Source of the DNA: Gomphosphaeria aponina SAG 52.96 = DSM 107014
GTDB lineage: Bacteria; Cyanobacteriota; Cyanobacteriia; Cyanobacteriales; Gomphosphaeriaceae
NCBI GenBank assembly: GCA_016903655.1
Contig: JADQBC010000001.1
Coordinates: forward strand, 13,371 to 77,370
Reading direction: 5' to 3'
DNA length: 64,000 nucleotides
In this document: positions 29,014-58,857 of the stretch, in pieces
Layout of the letters: every line of letters begins with the position of its first letter
Position numbering within the stretch: position 1 is the stretch's first letter
Notes under the pieces: model-generated
Database searches by the model: none
What the model was told of the DNA's origin: nothing
What the model saw: only the letters and a program-made list of their open reading frames with translations
Translations under genes and position numbers: made by a program

Positions 29014-31293
29014 CTACTTATAAATTAACTTTGGCGGAGCAGCAATAATGATAGTTGTTGCGCCTAATGCTAAGGCTGGGGGAATTAGGGGTATCCATCC
29101 CCCAGATATACTAAAAATTAACCAACAACTCACACCCAGTCCCCCAAAAATAATAACTTGAGCAAGAATAAAGCTCTGTGAATCGCGAATATAATAAGCA
29201 AGAATACCACCCATCATCGACCACCCTAAAATCCAAAGTAACTCAATTTGCACAGGCCACCACCAAATTGCTGGTTGAGAGTCAACCCCAACACTAATAA
29301 TTTGACTAATCATTTGTGCTTGCAAAAAAACTCCTGGTATTTCATCACCGTAGGGAGTAAGAAAATAATCATCAAATTTTTCTCCCTGAGCCGTAACCCC
29401 AATAATAACAATAGGATATTTACCACTAATTCCCTGAGTTAAAACATCTTTGAGAGAAACTGAAGCAGCAATGTCAGTAGTTTTTTCAACATAACGGTAA
29501 TTAAGTATTGTTTGGCTACCCCGAGAGTCTATTCCTTGATAACCTCCAGCGTGTTTAGTTAGTTTTGGTAGCAAATTAGAGCCAATTTTCCAGCCTTTAT
29601 CTGTCTCCTCAAAGTCTATCCCTAAATTATTGAGGTAATAAAAGGCAATTAAAGAGTTAAAAGCTAAATCAGTTTTACAAGTATCACCTGCTTGTGGAAT
29701 CATACTCATCAGATGGCGACGCACCACCCGATCCGAGTCCATTATTACATCACTAAAACCCCAAAAATCTGGGGAAATATCTTTGGGTGGTTGGGTATCC
29801 TGCCCTTGAGGAGAATTGGTTTTGCACATGACATAAAAAGGATAATTTTGGTTCAGGCGATCGCTTATTCCCTGAGCAAAATCATGTTGATGATAGATAT
29901 TCAAACCAATTACTTCTGGGTTAACTTTTGCCAACTCATCCAACAACCGACTCAAAGCTTCATCTGTTAAAGAACCCCCTGTTTTTCTCGGCCAATTTTG
30001 TTCTGTTTGATAGGCAATATCCTCATCATCAATAGTCACAACTAAAATCCGTTCATCCTGAACCATCGAAGAGTGAGAACGCCATTGCATCATAGTATCA
30101 AAAGCTGATAATTCCAACCCTTGAAGCAAACCCAAATATCTAATTATCCCCACCACTCCTGTACAAACCAAGCTAGTTAAAACCCCATTAACTAAACCCC
30201 GTTTGTTCATTGGTCCTGCCAAAAAATCCTGCCAATTTGGGGGAATCACACCAGGATTTTGGTAAATTACTGGCAATAAAGTTGCACCAGGTAATCTCTC
30301 ATTCCAGCCATCATCCTCCAGTTTTTTCCTCGCTTTTTTGACAGCAAGATATAAAGAATCACCCTTAGTAAAAAAACCCAGAAAAGACTTAAGAAACTCC
30401 TGAGCCACTAAATCTGGCACAGGTTCAGCCATCACAATAACTTCAGGAATATTTAATCTTTCCAATTCCCAAGCCAAACCCAAACCATCACAGGAGTTAA
30501 AAATTGCTATTTGCAATCCTTGATTAATCGCTTCTTCCAATCCATTTTGCACCTCTGCTACTGTCAACTTCTCAGTTTTATTAATATAAATTACCCCTTT
30601 ATCTTTTTTAGTGCTACTGTGACCAGCAAAAAAGATCATATCCCACTGTTGCTGCCACAATTTTTTACTAATTTCCCCGCGGGTTGGTTCTACCAAGAAG
30701 ACTACTTCCGCATCGGGTAACTGCTTTAAATAAAGCTGATCTTTCTTTACATCAATTCCAGTACTATCCCCAATTATAGCTAGTATTTTAACTTTCTTTT
30801 TCTTAGTCTTTACTGGTGGAGGAGCTTTGAAACAAACTGGACTAATAGCAGGATAAGCATTATTATACTCTGTAAAAAAATGCCACGAATGCCAGGGAAG
30901 CTTTCTAATATCATTGGTAGTTTTAATCAAAAAACGAACCTGATCTTCCTGGTTAAGATGAGTCCGCAATTGGTCATTAATGTCAGTAAACCCAGGAGAT
31001 TTAAGCCAATCATGGAAACTGTCTGTCAATTTCTCAAGCGAGCTACTGCACTGATCAATAATCTCATCTCCTGCATAATTAGTTGATTGTCCTGAAGGCC
31101 CACCAAGTCGAGAATTAACATTTATTTTATGATAAAATGTTCGCCAACTTTCGTGATTTTTCATAACCACTTCATTGGCGGGTAAACTTCCTGTAATTTC
31201 TAGTTTAGCTCTATGACCTTCATCACCAATTTCCAGCGTCACTTGAAAACCCAGATCACTCTCATCAATTTGTAAAACAACTAACTTATCCAT
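29014..31293 (-). CDS. Membrane protein: N-terminal CHAT (caspase-fold) protease domain + TM + periplasmic CHASE2 sensor + 3 C-terminal TM helices
   Basis: CHAT His/Cys dyad context (MIFFAGHSS ... IAIFNSCDG). CHASE2 hallmarks are present (ILVVTIDDEDI...NWP...VIGLNIY, GFSDVIMDSDRVVRRH, IVIIGVTAQ...TPYG..IPGVFLQAQMISQI). I prefer the ATG at 31293 (MDKLVVLQID), which is preceded by GAGG. Confidence 0.8.
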   Translation of the reverse strand: MDKLVVLQIDESDLGFQVTLEIGDEGHRAKLEITGSLPANEVVMKNHESWRTFYHKINVNSRLGGPSGQSTNYAGDEIIDQCSSSLEKLTDSFHDWLKSPGFTDINDQLRTHLNQEDQVRFLIKTTNDIRKLPWHSWHFFTEYNNAYPAISPVCFKAPPPVKTKKKKVKILAIIGDSTGIDVKKDQLYLKQLPDAEVVFLVEPTRGEISKKLWQQQWDMIFFAGHSSTKKDKGVIYINKTEKLTVAEVQNGLEEAINQGLQIAIFNSCDGLGLAWELERLNIPEVIVMAEPVPDLVAQEFLKSFLGFFTKGDSLYLAVKKARKKLEDDGWNERLPGATLLPVIYQNPGVIPPNWQDFLAGPMNKRGLVNGVLTSLVCTGVVGIIRYLGLLQGLELSAFDTMMQWRSHSSMVQDERILVVTIDDEDIAYQTEQNWPRKTGGSLTDEALSRLLDELAKVNPEVIGLNIYHQHDFAQGISDRLNQNYPFYVMCKTNSPQGQDTQPPKDISPDFWGFSDVIMDSDRVVRRHLMSMIPQAGDTCKTDLAFNSLIAFYYLNNLGIDFEETDKGWKIGSNLLPKLTKHAGGYQGIDSRGSQTILNYRYVEKTTDIAASVSLKDVLTQGISGKYPIVIIGVTAQGEKFDDYFLTPYGDEIPGVFLQAQMISQIISVGVDSQPAIWWWPVQIELLWILGWSMMGGILAYYIRDSQSFILAQVIIFGGLGVSCWLIFSISGGWIPLIPPALALGATTIIIAAPPKLIYK

Positions 31294-31303
31294 CTTCTTC
31301 CCC

Positions 31304-32530
31304 TCAGATAACAAAATATTCAGTGACACTAGCATTTTCTAAACTTAGATGAACACTAAATTCCTCCCCAGTGGTTCCATATAATTGTAATTGAATCCAA
31401 TTATCAGCTGCTCGAGATTCTGCTGCTAAAGGTGTTCCCGAATCATCCAGTACTGGTTTTCCTGCTTCATCAAGTATAACCAGTTTAAAATTCGGTGGCA
31501 GATAAATATTTTCTCCTCGAGGATAGGGATAAACTCGCAGACGAATATGGGTTATTTCCGAGGATTCCTGTTTAACAGAAACCACCAAAGAAACCGTCTT
31601 ACCAGCTAATCGCATCCCAAAATCAATCTCTTTTCCTCGCTTAAAAGCATCACGAAAATCCAGATCATCTTTTCTTCTCAAACGAAAACGAATTGGTTCT
31701 GGTTCTGGTTCTGGACCACCCAATAGTAATTCAACAGTTTTCCAACTTTCTTCCACAAAATGATTCATCCATTGAGTTAACCTTGTCTGCAACGCTCGTT
31801 TTCTATACATTCTTAATCTCCATGTATCATTGGCTAGTAAAGCATTCCAAATACCAGAAAATACTTGTCGTTTCGGTAAAACTAATTCTGGGTTTCCCAA
31901 CTTTGCTAATAACTTTTCTGCCTCCATTGGCGAAATTTGCTGGGGAGTTGTTATTACTCCTTTTGTCGATTGTTCTTGACAAAAATCCAAAGAAAGTAAG
32001 AGTACATTGGGGTCAAGGATTAAATCTTTCTGCTCCAGATAATAAAGGTGAAAATCCCTGTCATATACTGCTTTTTCTTGGATTTTCCTCTGGGTTGTAT
32101 ATGCCAAAATCCTCATTATTCCCACTTCTACATTGATTTGCACTGCTAGATAATAATCTCCAGCCCAACTTGGTATCTCTACCCATTCTCCAGGAATAGC
32201 CAACTCAAACTCATCAGCAGCATATTCACAATTTATCTGGGAGCAGGGAAGAATAACAATACGTTTATCATTAATAGTAATTGCACTCCCATTAACAAAT
32301 TCCCAAATACTAGGTAACTCCTCTGACTTCCAGACAGAAGCTTCTCCAGTATAATTCTCTGCCAACCAAGCTAAAATCCCTTCTAAACTCAGGCGATTTA
32401 AATAAGCTTGCCAACGATTTCCTGGACAAGAAAAAGCCTCAGTTTCTTCCCAAGCCAAATTTTGACTCTCTGGTGATATTTCTAACAAAATACCTTGTGC
32501 TATTTGATGATTGAGTTTAGTTGTGTTCAT
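31304..32530 (-). CDS. DUF1822 family protein (function unknown)
   Basis: 408 aa. The segments NRWQAYLNRLSLEGILAWL, IPGEWVEIPSWAGDYYLAVQINVE, LTQWMNHFVEESW, YLPPNFKLVILDEAG and ASVTEYFVI match my memory of the DUF1822 family consensus. Confidence 0.75.
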   Translation of the reverse strand: MNTTKLNHQIAQGILLEISPESQNLAWEETEAFSCPGNRWQAYLNRLSLEGILAWLAENYTGEASVWKSEELPSIWEFVNGSAITINDKRIVILPCSQINCEYAADEFELAIPGEWVEIPSWAGDYYLAVQINVEVGIMRILAYTTQRKIQEKAVYDRDFHLYYLEQKDLILDPNVLLLSLDFCQEQSTKGVITTPQQISPMEAEKLLAKLGNPELVLPKRQVFSGIWNALLANDTWRLRMYRKRALQTRLTQWMNHFVEESWKTVELLLGGPEPEPEPIRFRLRRKDDLDFRDAFKRGKEIDFGMRLAGKTVSLVVSVKQESSEITHIRLRVYPYPRGENIYLPPNFKLVILDEAGKPVLDDSGTPLAAESRAADNWIQLQLYGTTGEEFSVHLSLENASVTEYFVI

Positions 32531-32853
32531 TTTTTCACTTCCTTAAATGCTCTTTTTAACAAACTTGCAAAAATTTCTTTCGGTAATTGATTCAGGGCTT
32601 TTCTTCTCTCTTGAATTACCTCATCAGTTAAACAAAGATGCGGTTCTCTTTTTTGCCAAATAGGAATCAATTTTTTTATCAACATATCAATAAACTTTTC
32701 CTTGCGTCTTCTCACTTTGCACCAGCTTTTTTTGTTTCCATATATAATTTCTGCTGTTATTTCCAATGAATAATCTTGACAATAATATAAATCTAATATT
32801 TGCCAAATTTCCGTCGCAAATTCTTGTTTTCTCACACCTACTTTTCTAGCCAT
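32527..32853 (-). CDS. Small protein resembling sigma-70 region 4 (HTH)
   Basis: 108 aa. EIWQILDLYYCQDYSLEITAEIIYGNKKSWCKVRRRKEKFIDMLIKKL parallels the ECF region 4 pattern (R.V..L.Y..G.S..EIA..LG.S..TVKSRL.RAR..L). ATGA overlap with the DUF1822 start. Confidence 0.45.
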   Translation of the reverse strand: MARKVGVRKQEFATEIWQILDLYYCQDYSLEITAEIIYGNKKSWCKVRRRKEKFIDMLIKKLIPIWQKREPHLCLTDEVIQERRKALNQLPKEIFASLLKRAFKEVKK

Positions 32854-32867
32854 ATGTTGCTCATCAA

Positions 32868-33749
32868 TTAATTATAACCTTTAATTTCTCTAAAAACTTC
32901 AACAATGACTCCATATAATTCCTCTAATTCCTCCGAAAATTCCTCATTGATTAATTCTCTTTCCTTCCTCTCAGCTTCAGGGGCTGTTACTTTATTATTA
33001 AAATAACGGTAAACTATTGCGTCAATGATAGTCTGGATAATCTTGAAAATATCTTGTTCATTATATCTGGGAAAATCTCCTGGCTTTTCTTGATTGTAAG
33101 CCCTAGCTATTCTTTCCCAAACTGGATCAGCTTCACCTTGCAATGACCCGTAACCATTTTTATGAGTGGGGGCAGCAAGTTTATTAAAATATTCTCTCAC
33201 TAAAATATATTTAGGAATTTCTTCGGGGTATAAACCATATTCTTCGAGAGCTTTCTTAGTTGAGCGCATTGTTTTGCAGTTTAATAACCAAAGATCTGTG
33301 CGAAACGCTTTTGGATCACATTTTTTCCTGACATAATCTTTAAAAAATCCAACAAATTTCGTATAAGCATAACTTTTGAGAAATCCTATCTCAGGTTTAA
33401 ATTTGTTTAAAATGTTCCCGATTCTAGTTTGACAATCCTGAAAATAATCTTCCTGGGATACTCCATAACTATGGTACTTATTAGCAAAAGATTGAACTGC
33501 ATCATAACAAACTCTTCCTAAATAAGCTGTTAAGTGTTTTTGTAGTACTAAACTCTCAGGTGTTTGTTGCCATTGGACAAAAATCTGACTGGCACATTCT
33601 TCTGGAGTAGGAAGAGAAGGGAGCTGGTTTAAGTAGTACTCGATACTCTTTTTTAATTGAGAATCTTCTACCCAAACAGGAAAGTTTCCCAATACTCCCT
33701 TGTCAGGGAAAGTAGAAAATATTTGTATCAACTCTTGTCTTTCTGTCAT
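32868..33749 (-). CDS. Divergent sigma-70-like protein carrying a region-2-like segment
   Basis: 293 aa. LTAYLGRVCYDAVQSFANKY...SQEDYFQDCQTRIGNILNKFKPEIGFLKSYAYTKFVGFFKDYVRKK aligns by eye with the sigma70_r2 pattern (VYR.A.R...AEDL.QE.F.K....L..F....F..WL..IA.N...D.LRK). Confidence 0.5.
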   Translation of the reverse strand: MTERQELIQIFSTFPDKGVLGNFPVWVEDSQLKKSIEYYLNQLPSLPTPEECASQIFVQWQQTPESLVLQKHLTAYLGRVCYDAVQSFANKYHSYGVSQEDYFQDCQTRIGNILNKFKPEIGFLKSYAYTKFVGFFKDYVRKKCDPKAFRTDLWLLNCKTMRSTKKALEEYGLYPEEIPKYILVREYFNKLAAPTHKNGYGSLQGEADPVWERIARAYNQEKPGDFPRYNEQDIFKIIQTIIDAIVYRYFNNKVTAPEAERKERELINEEFSEELEELYGVIVEVFREIKGYN

Positions 33750-33766
33750 ATACTTTATCAGCTTAA

Positions 33767-33905
33767 GATTTGAGTTTTTTGAATTATTTTAAATAATAGA
33801 TTTGAGTCAAGTTGAAAATTCTTTTTTATAAAAAATATTACAAATTTAAAATTACTACCTAACCCATCATCTAATCATAGTCCTCATCTAATCATTCATA
33901 TCACA
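33767..33905. repeat. Bipartite intergenic repeat, copy 1 (Box A 33767-33794, Box B 33860-33897)
   Basis: Box A GATTTGAGTTTTTTGAATTATTTTAAAT is 28/28 identical to 37866-37893. Box B is TAACCCATCATCTAATCATAGTCCTC. Box A starts 17 nt from the start codon of the sigma-like gene. Confidence 0.8.
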
Positions 33906-34138
33906 TTTAAGTGATATGTACAAATACAGGTAGCCTCCAGACCTAGATAGTATCCTTGAAGTCAACCTCTCTTTGGTAAAAACTCAGTACGTTTATTACT
34001 TCGTTACAAAAAGGGGTTTTTATGCAGTTTTGCACCAAAAAAATTTTTTACTTCTTTTTGTTACCCTTTTATGGTAATGGTTCTGGGTACATCAGTAAGT
34101 AGTAGGTATGGCTATAGCCCTTGGAACGAAACCCAACA

Positions 34139-34366
34139 GGCGTTGCTGAATTGAAGCATGAAACCTTAAAGTAGCCAGAGCGGGGTGGAAAGTGCCCAGA
34201 GGGTTTTATAGCAAAGATGGGAATAGTTAGGACATTATCAAAATCTAAAACTTAATAATAGTAAGGGTTTTCCTTCTGCCTTCTGCCCTCTGCCTTCTGC
34301 CTTCTGCTATAGTTTGGTTAGTAGTGTTTGTAATAAAATAATTCATGACTCAAAAAACGCAACGCC
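34139..34366. repeat. R1-family MITE-like element with internal (CCTTCTG)x5 heptamer array
   Basis: Termini GGCGTTGC (34139) and GCAACGCC (34366). Heptamers occupy 34272-34306. The right arm tttggttagtagtgtttgtaa...ctcaaaaaacgcaacgcc is the inverse of the 3635 copy. Confidence 0.65.
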
Positions 34367-34751
34367 ACCCAACAAAAACCCTATCAGTACCCTCTTGAGT
34401 CTTTTGTCTTCAATGATTGCTTATAAATTATTTAACACTGCGCTGATTTCTTTTTTTCCATTTTATGAAAGAAATATTTTTACAATACAAGGGGTTTCAA
34501 AACCTTGTCTCCCAGGACTTGATCTATTTCATAACTTTATTAAAAATGGTATAAACGTCCTCATCATTCCAATATTTGCTATAACAGCAGCTTGAATACC
34601 GAACAAATTAACAGTTAAATAACTAGATAATTATATTAGAAATAAAAATCTCCAGAAAAATTTTATATTTAGCTGGGTGTTTTTCATGTAAATTATAAAA
34701 AGGCAGATCGATTGTTTTGAGAAGTCTAGATGAAAAAGGAGAATAAATTTT

Positions 34752-37982: not shown

Positions 37983-38055
37983 TGGAGGTAAGCGGACTCG
38001 AACCGCTGACCCTCTGCGTGCAAAGCAGATGCTCTACCAACTGAGCTATACCCCC
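37983..38055 (-). tRNA. tRNA-Ala (anticodon UGC), free-standing, CCA not encoded
   Basis: The reverse complement GGGGGTATAGCTCAGTTGGTAGAGCATCTGCTTTGCACGCAGAGGGTCAGCGGTTCGAGTCCGCTTACCTCCA folds as a cloverleaf. It has the G3:U70 Ala identity pair and a CTTTGCAC anticodon loop. Confidence 0.95.
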
Positions 38056-56135: not shown

Positions 56136-56235
56136 TCTATCAGTTATCAATTTCATTATTAATTGTTCATTGATAATTGAATGACTAATGAGTTAAAAAA
56201 TTCAAAAATTAAAAATTAAAAAATTGAGGAAAACA

Positions 56236-57348
56236 ATGAACAAAAACATAGTTGTAATTGGGGGCGGTGTAGCAGGAATGGCAGCCGCAGGAAAATTAAG
56301 AGAATTTGGATATGAAGTAACTTTAATCGAAAAGGAAAAAGAGTTAGGCGGTAATGTTAAAAACTGGTATAAAGTCTTTCCTGATTTTACCGATGCTGCT
56401 GAAATTATCAATAAATTGAAAGGGGAATTAAAGGGAATCAGGGTGATTAACAATGCCACTGTAACTCAGATTAATGGAGTAGCTCCTAACTTTGAAGTAA
56501 TTACTTCGACTGGGGAAAAAATTGACGCTGCTTCTATTCTTGTGGCTACAGGATTTAAGCCTTTTAATGCTGCTTTGAAAGAGGAATATGGCTATGGAAT
56601 TTATAACAATTCTATCACTTCTATTGAATTGGATGCCATGCTGAAACAGCATCAAGTGCAAACTGCATCAGGAAAACCGCCTCAGAAAATAGCCATGATC
56701 CACTGTGTGGGTTCGCGAGATCAACAGGTAAATAATAATTATTGTTCCCGTGTTTGTTGTACTAATACTGTTAAAGTTGCCATTGAAATTAAAGAGCAAA
56801 TTCCTGATTGTGAAATTTACTGTTTGTATATGGATATTCGGGTATTTGGACGGGGTTATGAGGAATTGTATCGTACATCTCAAGAAAAATTTGGCGTTCA
56901 ATTTATTCGCGGGCGACTTTCTGAAGCTGGGGAAAAAACTGATGGTAGTTTATTGTTGCGGCTAGAAGATACTTTGACTGCTAAACCTATGCGTTTAACT
57001 GTGGATATGTTGGTTTTAATGGTAGGAATGGTGGGTAATACTGAGTTAGCTGAAATTGCAGATTTAAAGGTGGGTTGCGATCGCTTTTACACCACTGCCC
57101 ATGAGCAATATTCTAACAATAATTCTGAGAAAAAAGGTATTTTTCTAGCAGGAACAGCAACGGGTCCTAAAGCTATTATGGAATCTATTACTGATGGGCG
57201 TTCAGCCGCAGCAGAAATAGCAGCTTTTTTGCATAGTTTCACCCTAGAAAATATGAGCTGTGATTTATCTTTCAGACAGCCTTTCGCCTCAATGATTGCA
57301 GGAGGAAATCAGTTTTGTAATACCCCACCCCAACCCTCCCCTTATTAA
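56236..57348 (+). CDS. hdrA: Heterodisulfide reductase subunit A-like flavoprotein (sHdrA)
   Basis: FAD motif VVIGGGVAGMAAA and the Fe-S Cys cluster HCVGSRD...YCSRVCC. The last ~35 aa read into a repeat insertion and may not be native. Confidence 0.8.
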   Translation: MNKNIVVIGGGVAGMAAAGKLREFGYEVTLIEKEKELGGNVKNWYKVFPDFTDAAEIINKLKGELKGIRVINNATVTQINGVAPNFEVITSTGEKIDAASILVATGFKPFNAALKEEYGYGIYNNSITSIELDAMLKQHQVQTASGKPPQKIAMIHCVGSRDQQVNNNYCSRVCCTNTVKVAIEIKEQIPDCEIYCLYMDIRVFGRGYEELYRTSQEKFGVQFIRGRLSEAGEKTDGSLLLRLEDTLTAKPMRLTVDMLVLMVGMVGNTELAEIADLKVGCDRFYTTAHEQYSNNNSEKKGIFLAGTATGPKAIMESITDGRSAAAEIAAFLHSFTLENMSCDLSFRQPFASMIAGGNQFCNTPPQPSPY

Positions 57349-57385
57349 GGGGAGGGAGTCAGCATTTCCCCCCTGCGGGGGGGTT
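57325..57385. repeat. GC-rich double-hairpin insertion in the hdrA-hdrC2 spacer
   Basis: CCCTCCCC ttattaa GGGGAGGG, followed by CCCCCC tgc GGGGGG. Confidence 0.6.
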
Positions 57386-57415
57386 ATCCGTTTAAATTTG
57401 GTAAGGAATAAAACA

Positions 57416-57997
57416 ATGGTAAAGAAAAAATGTTTTTTTGGGATTAAAACCGATCGCCAGGTTGACGGCGACAAAATGAATGCAAAATTATCTCAAGAAG
57501 TTTTGGCCCAAGGGGGTGAAAATGCTGCAATTAATGCTTGTATGCAGTGTGGTACTTGTAGCGGTGGTTGTCCCAATGCAGAAAGAATGGATCTGTTACC
57601 CAGAAGTCTGGTGTTGATGGTACAACGGGGAGAATGGGAAAAAGTGCTTAAAAGTCAAACTCTCTGGCTCTGTAGTTCATGTCATACTTGCACCTCTCGC
57701 TGTCCTCGTGGGGTTCGTCCTACAGATGTCATTGAAGCAGTAAAGGCGATCGCCATTAGGGAAGGAATTAAAAACGATTCTGTAAGATTTAATCAGATAT
57801 TTGTGGAGTTAATTGAAAAAAGAGGCATTCTTTTTGAACCTGAATTAATGCTGAAATATGGCGGACTTAAAGCCCTTGTTGATCAAGCAGAATTGGGGAT
57901 TAAATTAACTTTAAAAGGTAAATTATCTCCCTTCCCTCCCAAAGTCAAAGAACCAAAAAAATTTAGTGAAGCATTAACAAAAGCGGTGAAAAAATGA
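57416..57997 (+). CDS. hdrC: Heterodisulfide reductase subunit C-like (sHdrC2)
   Basis: CMQCGTCSGGCP and CSSCHTCTSRCP. I prefer the ATG at 57416 (or 57476), because the track start at 57296 lies inside the repeat. ATGA overlap with hdrB2. Confidence 0.75.
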   Translation: MVKKKCFFGIKTDRQVDGDKMNAKLSQEVLAQGGENAAINACMQCGTCSGGCPNAERMDLLPRSLVLMVQRGEWEKVLKSQTLWLCSSCHTCTSRCPRGVRPTDVIEAVKAIAIREGIKNDSVRFNQIFVELIEKRGILFEPELMLKYGGLKALVDQAELGIKLTLKGKLSPFPPKVKEPKKFSEALTKAVKK

Positions 57998-58857
57998 AAT
58001 ATTCTTATTATCCAGGATGCAGCCTTCATTCTTCGGCAAAAGAGTTTGACATCTCCACCAAAGTGGTAATGAAGGAGTTAGAAATTGAACTAGAAGAACT
58101 TCAGGACTGGTCATGTTGTGGGGGTTCTATTGCAGGAGGAGTTGATCACAATATTGGAATGGCATTAGCAGCGAGAAATGTAGTTTTAGCCCAAAATCAA
58201 AATCAAGACTTATTAGCAGCTTGTTCTGGTTGTTACAATAAGTCAGCTAAAGCAGCTCAAGCCTTAGAAAATGAGCAAGAAAGAGCAAAGATTACCTCAA
58301 TTCTTACTGATATGGGAATGTCGGTTTCTAATCAGAAAATTAAAGTCAGAAATGTGGTAGATGTTTTGGTCAATGATTTAGACATTGCACCCAAAATTAA
58401 AAAACCACTAACAGGATTAAAAGTTGCTTGTTATTATGGTTGTCTTTTAACTCGACCAGCGGATATTACGGGCTGGGATTCACCAGTTTTTCCCATGTCA
58501 TTAGACAAATTAGCACAAAAATGTGGAGCTGAAGTAGTAGATTTTCGTTCAAAAACTAAATGTTGTGGTGGGCCCATTTTAGTTCCCCAGGAAGAAGTTG
58601 CTTTTGAAATGACGAAAAAACTCCTAGATGAAGCAAAATCCCTCGGTGCAGATTGTATAATTTTAGCCTGTCCCTTGTGTTCAAATAATCTTGAATTAAG
58701 ACAGCCTGATATTGAGAAAAAGTATAATGTTAACTATAATTTGCCCATTCTTTATATCACAGAATTAATTGGGTTAGCATTAGGAATTAAACCGAGAAAA
58801 TTGGGATTAGATAAACATCTTGTTTCCACAAAACCTGTTTTAGCTAAAGTTAGTTAA
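57994..58857 (+). CDS. hdrB: Heterodisulfide reductase subunit B-like (sHdrB2)
   Basis: Two complete CCG domains: YYPGC...SCCGGS...ACSGC and YYGC...KCCGGP...ACPLC. Confidence 0.85.
   Translation: MKYSYYPGCSLHSSAKEFDISTKVVMKELEIELEELQDWSCCGGSIAGGVDHNIGMALAARNVVLAQNQNQDLLAACSGCYNKSAKAAQALENEQERAKITSILTDMGMSVSNQKIKVRNVVDVLVNDLDIAPKIKKPLTGLKVACYYGCLLTRPADITGWDSPVFPMSLDKLAQKCGAEVVDFRSKTKCCGGPILVPQEEVAFEMTKKLLDEAKSLGADCIILACPLCSNNLELRQPDIEKKYNVNYNLPILYITELIGLALGIKPRKLGLDKHLVSTKPVLAKVS

Follow-up and report, generated by a model that had tools for sequence, protein, structure and literature searches.

A sigma-70-family gene of the cyanobacterium Gomphosphaeria aponina divided into two cistrons within domain 4

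Apart from SigO-RsoA of Bacillus subtilis and phage systems such as gp55/gp33 of T4, sigma factors are, to our knowledge, treated as single polypeptides. The locus described here raises the question of whether two adjacent open reading frames (ORFs) encode the two pieces of a working sigma factor or are the remains of a broken gene. It lies in a 64-kb stretch of the metagenome-assembled genome (MAG) of Gomphosphaeria aponina SAG 52.96 / DSM 107014. This whole stretch is called the window, and all coordinates refer to it. Both ORFs are annotated as hypothetical proteins, DSM107014_00215 and DSM107014_00210, and are referred to as ORF1 and ORF2. A preliminary description of this DNA had read them as a sigma region 2 and a sigma region 4 on separate polypeptides; it had placed the ORFs, the TAA and the 14-nucleotide (nt) gap correctly, sequences included:

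Positions 33749..32868, minus strand: ORF1, 293 amino acids (aa), DSM107014_00215, with its stop codon TAA at 32870-32868.
Positions 32854..32867, minus strand: 14-nt spacer TTGATGAGCAACAT from the ORF1 stop to the ORF2 start, taken from the sequence and covered by terminator and RNA-fold scans.
Positions 32853..32527, minus strand: ORF2, 108 aa, DSM107014_00210, with its ATG at 32853.

The alignments indicate that the locus represents one ancestral sigma-70-family gene of ~400 aa, the sigma gene of a sigma/DUF1822/CHAT-CHASE2 operon, which is now divided into two cistrons. An exhaustive HMMER search with ORF1 returned 167 relatives, and lengths were judged on the best 150 of these. Nearly all of the 150 are single chains of ~400 aa, which match ORF1 only over their first ~220-290 residues. 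The best match, P0003 (399 aa), aligned with ORF1 over its residues 6-288 at 48% identity, and ORF2 aligned without gaps to its residues 299-392 at 56% identity (E = 6e-36). When P0003 was compared with the window by tblastn, two high-scoring segment pairs were obtained, aa 7-255 in frame -3 and aa 296-392 in frame -2, with identities of 53% and 55-56%, respectively. Since this mapping onto P0003 is colinear across the two frames, ORF1 and ORF2 are contiguous parts of one ancestral protein, which is the outcome of the alignment to full-length homologs that had been suggested in the preliminary description.

Membership of the sigma-70 family was evaluated for each ORF and for its relatives. In ORF1, one match was obtained at the place where a region-2-like segment had previously been noticed by eye:

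Positions 33321..33506, minus strand: sigma-70 region 2 match (PF04542), ORF1 aa 82-143.

The segment lies within this match, which is borderline (23.8 bits versus a gathering cut-off of 24, E = 3.9e-5); TIGR02937 was below threshold on ORF1 (33.8 bits, cut-off 42.9). P0003 matches PF04542 at the same place, several family members carry precomputed PF04542 matches, and the database names of family members are "sigma-70 family" or "Group 3/4 sigma-70" factors. A direct Sigma70_r4 match was not found for ORF2 in Pfam, where the best hit was a weak YlxM-type helix-turn-helix (HTH; E = 0.04). However, ORF2 aligned to the family profile with an hhalign probability of 95.7%, in the columns that correspond to the C-terminal sigma-4. 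In these columns, P0005, P0006, and P0007 reach 31.6-44.3 bits for PF04545 (cut-off 24.1), and family members exceed the threshold for both Sigma70_r4 (PF04545) and Sigma70_r4_2 (PF08281). The earlier view of ORF2 as a region-4 HTH is hence upheld by the family profile but not by a direct Pfam match. The consensus of the family ends in LxLYYxQxLTQQxIA...QYTVSRRL, in agreement with the preliminary description, in which the cyanobacterial relatives are single polypeptides ending in LxLYY...TVSRRL. In the subclade formed by the window gene, P0170, and P0003, region 4.1 is shorter and a divergent recognition helix, K-x-RRR-x-x-KF, replaces QYTVSRRL, which accounts for the silence of the Pfam region-4 models on ORF2 and on P0003. 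A complete region 4 is missing from ORF1, and ORF2 is a member of the ORF1 family, not of an unrelated one; the opposite of either finding had been foreseen as a way in which the idea of a divided sigma factor could fail. Sequence searches of the PDB with ORF1 and ORF2 gave chance-level matches only. A word-index protein search gave only self matches for both ORFs; because it missed P0003 and P0170, which have 48-56% identity and are part of the same collection, it says nothing about rarity, and more subclade members may exist.

To place the break within the protein fold, an AlphaFold (AF2) model of the orthologue P0003, and not of the window proteins themselves, was used (24-row alignment, mean predicted local distance difference test [pLDDT] score of 83.7). 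All of the 50 top Foldseek matches of this model in the PDB (50/50) were sigma factors, including SigB, sigma-32, sigma-S, sigma-A, and WhiG, in alignments of 308-393 columns (lowest E, 1.6e-4), and the architecture is therefore predicted to comprise sigma-2, sigma-3, a linker, and sigma-4 with N- and C-terminal extensions. The model shows a disordered linker at residues 254-270 (pLDDT <50), a helix at 271-293, a loop at 294-299, and a helix at 300-318, followed by helices at 323-331 and 334-362 and by two C-terminal helices. The window break maps to P0003 residues ~292-294. The model places it outside the disordered linker, in the turn that connects the first two helices of domain 4. Two elements of ORF1 correspond to this part of P0003:

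Positions 32946..32996, minus strand: predicted disordered inter-domain linker, ORF1 aa ~252-268, assigned by alignment with P0003 254-270 (pLDDT <50).
Positions 32871..32945, minus strand: C-terminal amphipathic helix of ORF1, aa ~269-293, equivalent to P0003 helix 271-293, domain-4 helix 1.

The sigma modules are divided between ORF1 and ORF2, which are adjacent and on the same strand, but the division does not run between region 2 and region 4, as the preliminary description had it. In addition to a family-specific N-terminal domain and sigma region 2, ORF1 has a sigma-3-like middle domain, a disordered linker resembling region 3.2, and helix 1 of domain 4. ORF2 contains helices 2-4 of sigma domain 4 (the HTH) and a C-terminal tail of ~45 aa. 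The terminal helix of ORF1 has the sequence EELEELYGVIVEVFREIKGYN, and its hydrophobic pattern (L274, L277, V282, V284, I288, N292) is invariant in the window, P0003, and P0170. Such conservation is expected only if the helix still has a partner. A single-sequence AlphaFold model of ORF2 (pLDDT 49.9) was not used.

As assembled, the junction within window positions 32840-32880 reads TAATTGATGAGCAACATATG. ORF2 is in the -1/+2 frame relative to ORF1, and its frame has a TAA of its own 5 nt upstream of the ORF1 TAA. The open frames overlap by ~1 nt, so that the two ORFs could be fused only by an insertion or deletion (indel) within ~4 nt (GGTTATAAT^TAA). Relative to the unsplit orthologue, the alignment points to a real insertion at the break that leaves the second part in the -1 frame. 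Local repeats or a templated insertion were sought at the junction, and nothing above chance was found. A perfect in-frame 9-nt tandem duplication, GAGGAATTA x2, occurs at 32916-32933 on the coding strand, where it encodes EEL-EEL, 45 nt ahead of the ORF1 stop. This duplication marks the surroundings of the break as prone to slippage.

Could the two frames be a product of the data? The MAG was assembled with MEGAHIT from Illumina NovaSeq reads (PMC8001431). An independent Logan assembly of SRR12487250 is identical to window positions 34167..30527 (3,641 nt, 0 mismatches) and encodes ORF1 and ORF2 at unchanged lengths (293 and 108 aa). The agreement between two assemblers working on Illumina reads excludes an assembler artefact, and with it the assembly indel considered in the preliminary description. 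A read error is unlikely as well. It would imply a truly single ORF with one base missing in GGTTATAAT^TAA (e.g., AA for AAA), and a 1-nt insertion in this ~4-nt stretch would indeed yield an ORF of 400-odd aa with a linker only ~5 aa longer than that of P0003. On the other hand, the site has no homopolymer of more than 2 nt that would need miscalling, the two assemblies of the NovaSeq reads are identical, an independent relative stops at the same place, and 10 adjacent ORFs elsewhere in the window have complete Pfam domains, with no other split domains seen. We consider a sequencing or assembly error very improbable.

This relative is P0170, the closest to the window protein (56% identity to ORF1), encoded at locus L013 on contig SRR31730584_1133977. 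P0170 ends with a genuine TAA at ...VITEIKKVNKAQD, ~4 codons from the ...VFREIKGYN of the window. Two nucleotides after this TAA comes ATG GAT AAC TAT GAA AAA..., in a frame that, alone among the three, is still open where the contig ends; a second cistron, if present, would start at or near ATGGATAACTATG. The open frame aligns codon for codon with NIGIREKEF of P0003. In a hand alignment, the window corresponds to P0003 plus 14 nt and L013 to P0003 plus 2 nt, which gives the same frame offset, and both loci carry ..AT TAA .. AT ATG G. The comparison of orthologous loci for the same split, which had also been suggested earlier, thus gave a divided answer, with P0003 unsplit and P0170 stopping near the same position. 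In a neighbor-joining (NJ) tree, the window protein, P0003, and P0170 form a subclade with 100% support. Interruptions at the same turn in the two closest known relatives are hard to explain by random decay and fit a break point that is tolerated. Further subclade loci were not found in genome contigs (alignment scan and a degenerate FRTDxWLLNCK DNA pattern) or in viral contigs, and metagenome contigs yielded only P0003's own contig. The alignment of the whole family offers no segment of sufficient conservation for such a scan.

If the gene had been inactivated long ago, further lesions, accelerated divergence, or loss of the partner genes would be signs of its decay. None of these was found, although a very recent lesion would look alike. 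The 1.2 kb of the sigma locus contain exactly one lesion, and the DUF1822 and CHAT-CHASE2 genes are intact. Between the window and P0003, the N parts share an identity of 0.530 and the C parts one of 0.564, compared to an average of 0.494 +/- 0.06 in the C part for intact family pairs with an N-part identity of 0.5-0.6. The ratio of C- to N-part identity is 1.06 for the window versus a family mean of 0.94 (5-95% range, 0.77-1.13), and the C part of the window gene matches the remaining family members with the same mean identity as does that of P0003. By these measures, ORF2 is no more diverged than expected.

Other copies in the family are plainly damaged (L004, L009, L012, and L010). In L004, an in-frame TGA is followed by 43 homologous codons before the called start. 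This locus (L004:4001-5209, Logan SRR25475466) encodes P0004, which adjoins the subclade of the window with a bootstrap of only 65%, and its TGA follows residue 259. After the 43 codons, a 99-aa sigma-4 ORF is called from GTG, followed by DUF1822, and the same contig occurs in 4 samples. As judged from its sequence, the P0004 locus could be a nonsense pseudogene or could be subject to TGA read-through. Two frameshifts precede sigma-4 in L009:3001-4195 and one does in L012:330-1500, whereas L010:3001-4362 shows a truncation of insertion sequence (IS) type, next to which a gene of the transposase-type HTH kind lies on the other strand. Among metagenome assemblies, disrupted genes of this sigma family are no rarity. 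P0022 (298 aa) was evaluated as a further split example and was ruled out, as no sigma-4 coding sequence follows it. It was found in three contigs (L005:4001-4897, and also L006 and L007), ends shortly after the linker, and is accompanied by nSTAND1/NACHT where DUF1822 would otherwise be encoded. P0022 may represent either a variant without sigma-4 or a remnant within another conflict-system setting.

We tentatively favor the reading that a two-cistron sigma gene has been retained over that of a recent inactivating frameshift, with a confidence a little short of even. That its products form a natural two-polypeptide sigma-70-family factor, broken inside domain 4 between helices 4.1-alpha1 and alpha2 and maintained by selection in the subclade of the window and P0170, is plausible but somewhat doubtful. 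In such a factor, one promoter, upstream of ORF1, would serve both cistrons. After termination at the ORF1 TAA, ribosomes would re-initiate 14 nt downstream at the ORF2 ATG, the intervening stretch being unstructured. The C-terminal amphipathic helix of ORF1 would then pack onto ORF2 and rebuild domain 4 with its -35-binding and flap-binding functions, resulting in a non-covalent two-piece sigma factor that binds the RNA polymerase core. Control would be exerted by DUF1822 and the caspase-CHASE2 sensor, in line with the proposal for the single-chain factors. The separate HTH piece could add a switch on sigma activity, if the supply of this piece varied or if DUF1822 or the caspase sequestered it. 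No terminator was found between ORF1 and ORF2, and no stable RNA structure was found at the junction (fold z = +0.71; 153 of 200 shuffles folded equally well or better). The ORF2 stop overlaps the DUF1822 start (ATGA). A candidate promoter was identified upstream of ORF1:

Positions 33783..33810, minus strand: promoter-like sigma-70 site TTGACT-16 nt-AATAAT, 10/12 matches, ending 34 nt upstream of the ORF1 ATG.

This site is a consensus match only, and such sites are not above the shuffled expectation in the region. A comparison of the upstream regions of the window and L001, the locus of P0003, revealed no convincing promoter conservation.

Several observations weigh against a retained two-piece factor. 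The relatives are nearly all single chains, as described above, and P0003, a member of the subclade itself, is one of them. The NJ tree pairs P0003 with P0170 and leaves the window outside (73% bootstrap), so that the split either arose twice or was reversed once by a later re-fusion. The L013 contig ends 29 nt past the TAA, which puts the second cistron of P0170 and its frame beyond view. The 14-nt spacer contains no strong or clear Shine-Dalgarno sequence before ORF2. SAG 52.96 is a culture of long standing, which would allow mutations to build up. Damage to other family copies points in the same direction, as does the loss of activity in three engineered extracytoplasmic function (ECF) sigma factors that were split in the linker (Pinto et al. 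2020, PMC7090010). The main rival is a recent inactivating frameshift, caused by an indel in the indel-prone, A/T-rich linker, possibly during decades in culture. ORF1 and ORF2 would then be undecayed halves of a pseudogene, and translation of ORF2 would be incidental. Colinear mapping onto a single-chain homologue in two frames is the classic signature of such an event, the break lies within a folded domain, the 9-nt tandem duplication attests to local slippage, and a young lesion would equally leave ORF2 without accelerated divergence. Nevertheless, the stop of P0170 ~4 codons away is difficult to reconcile with chance, two independent random lesions at this distance being estimated at ~1% or less even when a hotspot is allowed for. 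The presence of a single lesion in 1.2 kb with intact downstream genes and the conservation of the ORF1 terminal helix in both interrupted lineages also argue against it. We regard a recent frameshift as a serious possibility, if a rather doubtful one. The choice offered in the preliminary description, a two-polypeptide sigma factor or a frameshifted single gene, is thereby narrowed to a frame-changing split of an ancestrally single gene, the pieces of which may work together.

Two further explanations would leave the gene functional in another way. The pieces may have become independent, with ORF1 as a sigma factor lacking most of domain 4, acting at extended -10 promoters or as a decoy, and ORF2 as a free HTH regulator or a partner of DUF1822. 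Initiation from extended -10 promoters is possible without region 4 of sigma-70, ORF1 and ORF2 are each intact and conserved, and sigma-4-less relatives such as P0022 exist in three contigs. This is improbable, however, given that the conserved domain-4 helix 1 on ORF1 argues for continued pairing with ORF2 and that no sign of new domains or changed selection was seen. Alternatively, programmed -1 ribosomal frameshifting or another form of recoding at the ORF1 stop could yield a full-length sigma factor beside the truncated ORF1 product. The ORF2 frame is the -1 frame and opens exactly at the ORF1 stop, and the relative shares a similar ..AT TAA AT.. context. Yet a slippery heptamer of the form X XXY YYZ is lacking, re-pairing in the -1 frame is impossible for the P-site codons AAT and GAT, and a stimulatory RNA structure is absent by the fold analysis given above, which makes recoding scarcely credible.

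Downstream of ORF2, two intact genes follow on the same strand:

Positions 31304..32530, minus strand: DUF1822 protein, 408 aa, intact (PF08852, E = 3e-73).
Positions 29014..31335, minus strand: CHAT (caspase-like) and CHASE2 membrane sensor, 773 aa, intact, last gene of the cluster (CHASE2, E = 8e-51; CHAT, E = 8e-8).

DUF1822 is the conserved partner gene of this sigma family. The DUF1822 protein shares 55% identity with its L001 orthologue over the full length, and the CHAT-CHASE2 protein shares 60% with residues 1-774 of 795 of its own. At the P0003 locus (3 assemblies), the genes have the same order, sigma, DUF1822 (4-nt overlap), and CHAT-CHASE2, and are followed by DUF928; two-partner secretion (TPS) and TPR-CHAT genes lie upstream of the operon. 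No tblastn match to the DUF928, TPS, and TPR-CHAT genes of L001 was obtained in the whole 64 kb. Kaur et al. 2021 (PMC8195603) described an EACC2-caspase / ECF sigma / DUF1822 conflict-signaling system with "ECF sigma + DUF1822" neighbors of caspase genes and proposed that sensing leads to caspase activation and then to a sigma-mediated transcriptional output. With CHAT and CHASE2, DUF1822, and sigma in one co-oriented cluster, the gene set of that system is present in the window. Residues 1-200 of the CHAT-CHASE2 protein had no Pfam match, in libraries without an EACC2 model.

The ~1 kb upstream of ORF1 (33750-34750) contains no ORF of at least 100 aa and no Rfam match, and L001 has TPR-CHAT there. 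This region includes a heptamer array, CCTTCTG x5.1 (34272-34307), and short ATCATCTA-type repeats (33866-33895). A single tRNA gene at 37983-38055 on the minus strand is the sole Rfam family that reached the gathering score in the window. Elsewhere, a trio of HdrA-like, HdrC-like, and HdrB-like genes (heterodisulfide-reductase-type Fe-S/CCG proteins) at 56224-58857 was noticed, which at first resembled a split GlcF. Its Fer4 and CCG ORFs (57296-58857) were ruled out as a second split gene, as they encode normal HdrC-like and HdrB-like subunits.

If the two-piece factor is real, its tolerance of a cut inside domain 4 would show that non-covalent reassembly of this domain is possible. Such a sigma would also offer a design for split-sigma logic gates without inteins and would imply a possible regulatory layer in the sigma/DUF1822/caspase-CHASE2 systems, which are poorly understood and occur in multicellular and colonial cyanobacteria. 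If the locus is only a pseudogene, its value is confined to annotation: DSM107014_00215 and DSM107014_00210 are the two parts of a single sigma gene, and the copy of the system in this strain would be left without a transcriptional output.

Among known systems, the single-chain ~400-aa, DUF1822-associated cyanobacterial sigma factors are the closest. They are homologous over both ORFs and share the operon, the N-terminal domain, and the C-terminal tail, whereas the window gene consists of two cistrons in different frames with the break after domain-4 helix 1. The family pseudogenes (L009, L012, L004, and L010) resemble it in having an N-terminal ORF of 240-340 aa, followed by sigma-4 in another frame or after a stop. 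In contrast to L009, L004, and L010, the junction in the window is single and clean, a start codon follows the stop after 14 nt, and at most ~5 residues are lost; unlike in the family pseudogenes, its place of break is also seen in the nearest relative, P0170.

According to PMC7826278, SigO-RsoA (YvrI-YvrHa) of Bacillus subtilis has sigma-2 and sigma-4 on separate polypeptides. The likeness is that a sigma function would extend over two adjacent gene products, co-transcribed for SigO-RsoA and presumably so in the window. This pair, cited as a precedent in the preliminary description, can serve as an analogy only, because neither homology nor a shared break point was found; the Pfam and NCBIfam matches of ORF1 and ORF2 include no SigO/RsoA-type family, and no direct pairwise comparison was made. 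In the window, the break lies inside domain 4, and domains 2 and 3, the linker, and helix 4.1 all stay with the N-terminal piece. Engineered split ECF sigma factors are likewise cut between DNA-binding modules into two polypeptides, and their halves are inactive unless re-ligated by inteins (PMC7090010) or expressed at high levels (King et al. 2021, PMC8566587). However, these cuts were placed in the disordered linker, whereas the cut in the window leaves a domain-4 helix on the N-terminal piece, which could act as a non-covalent tether. The window sigma differs from SigO-RsoA also in that its single-chain ancestor is still extant in a sister lineage.

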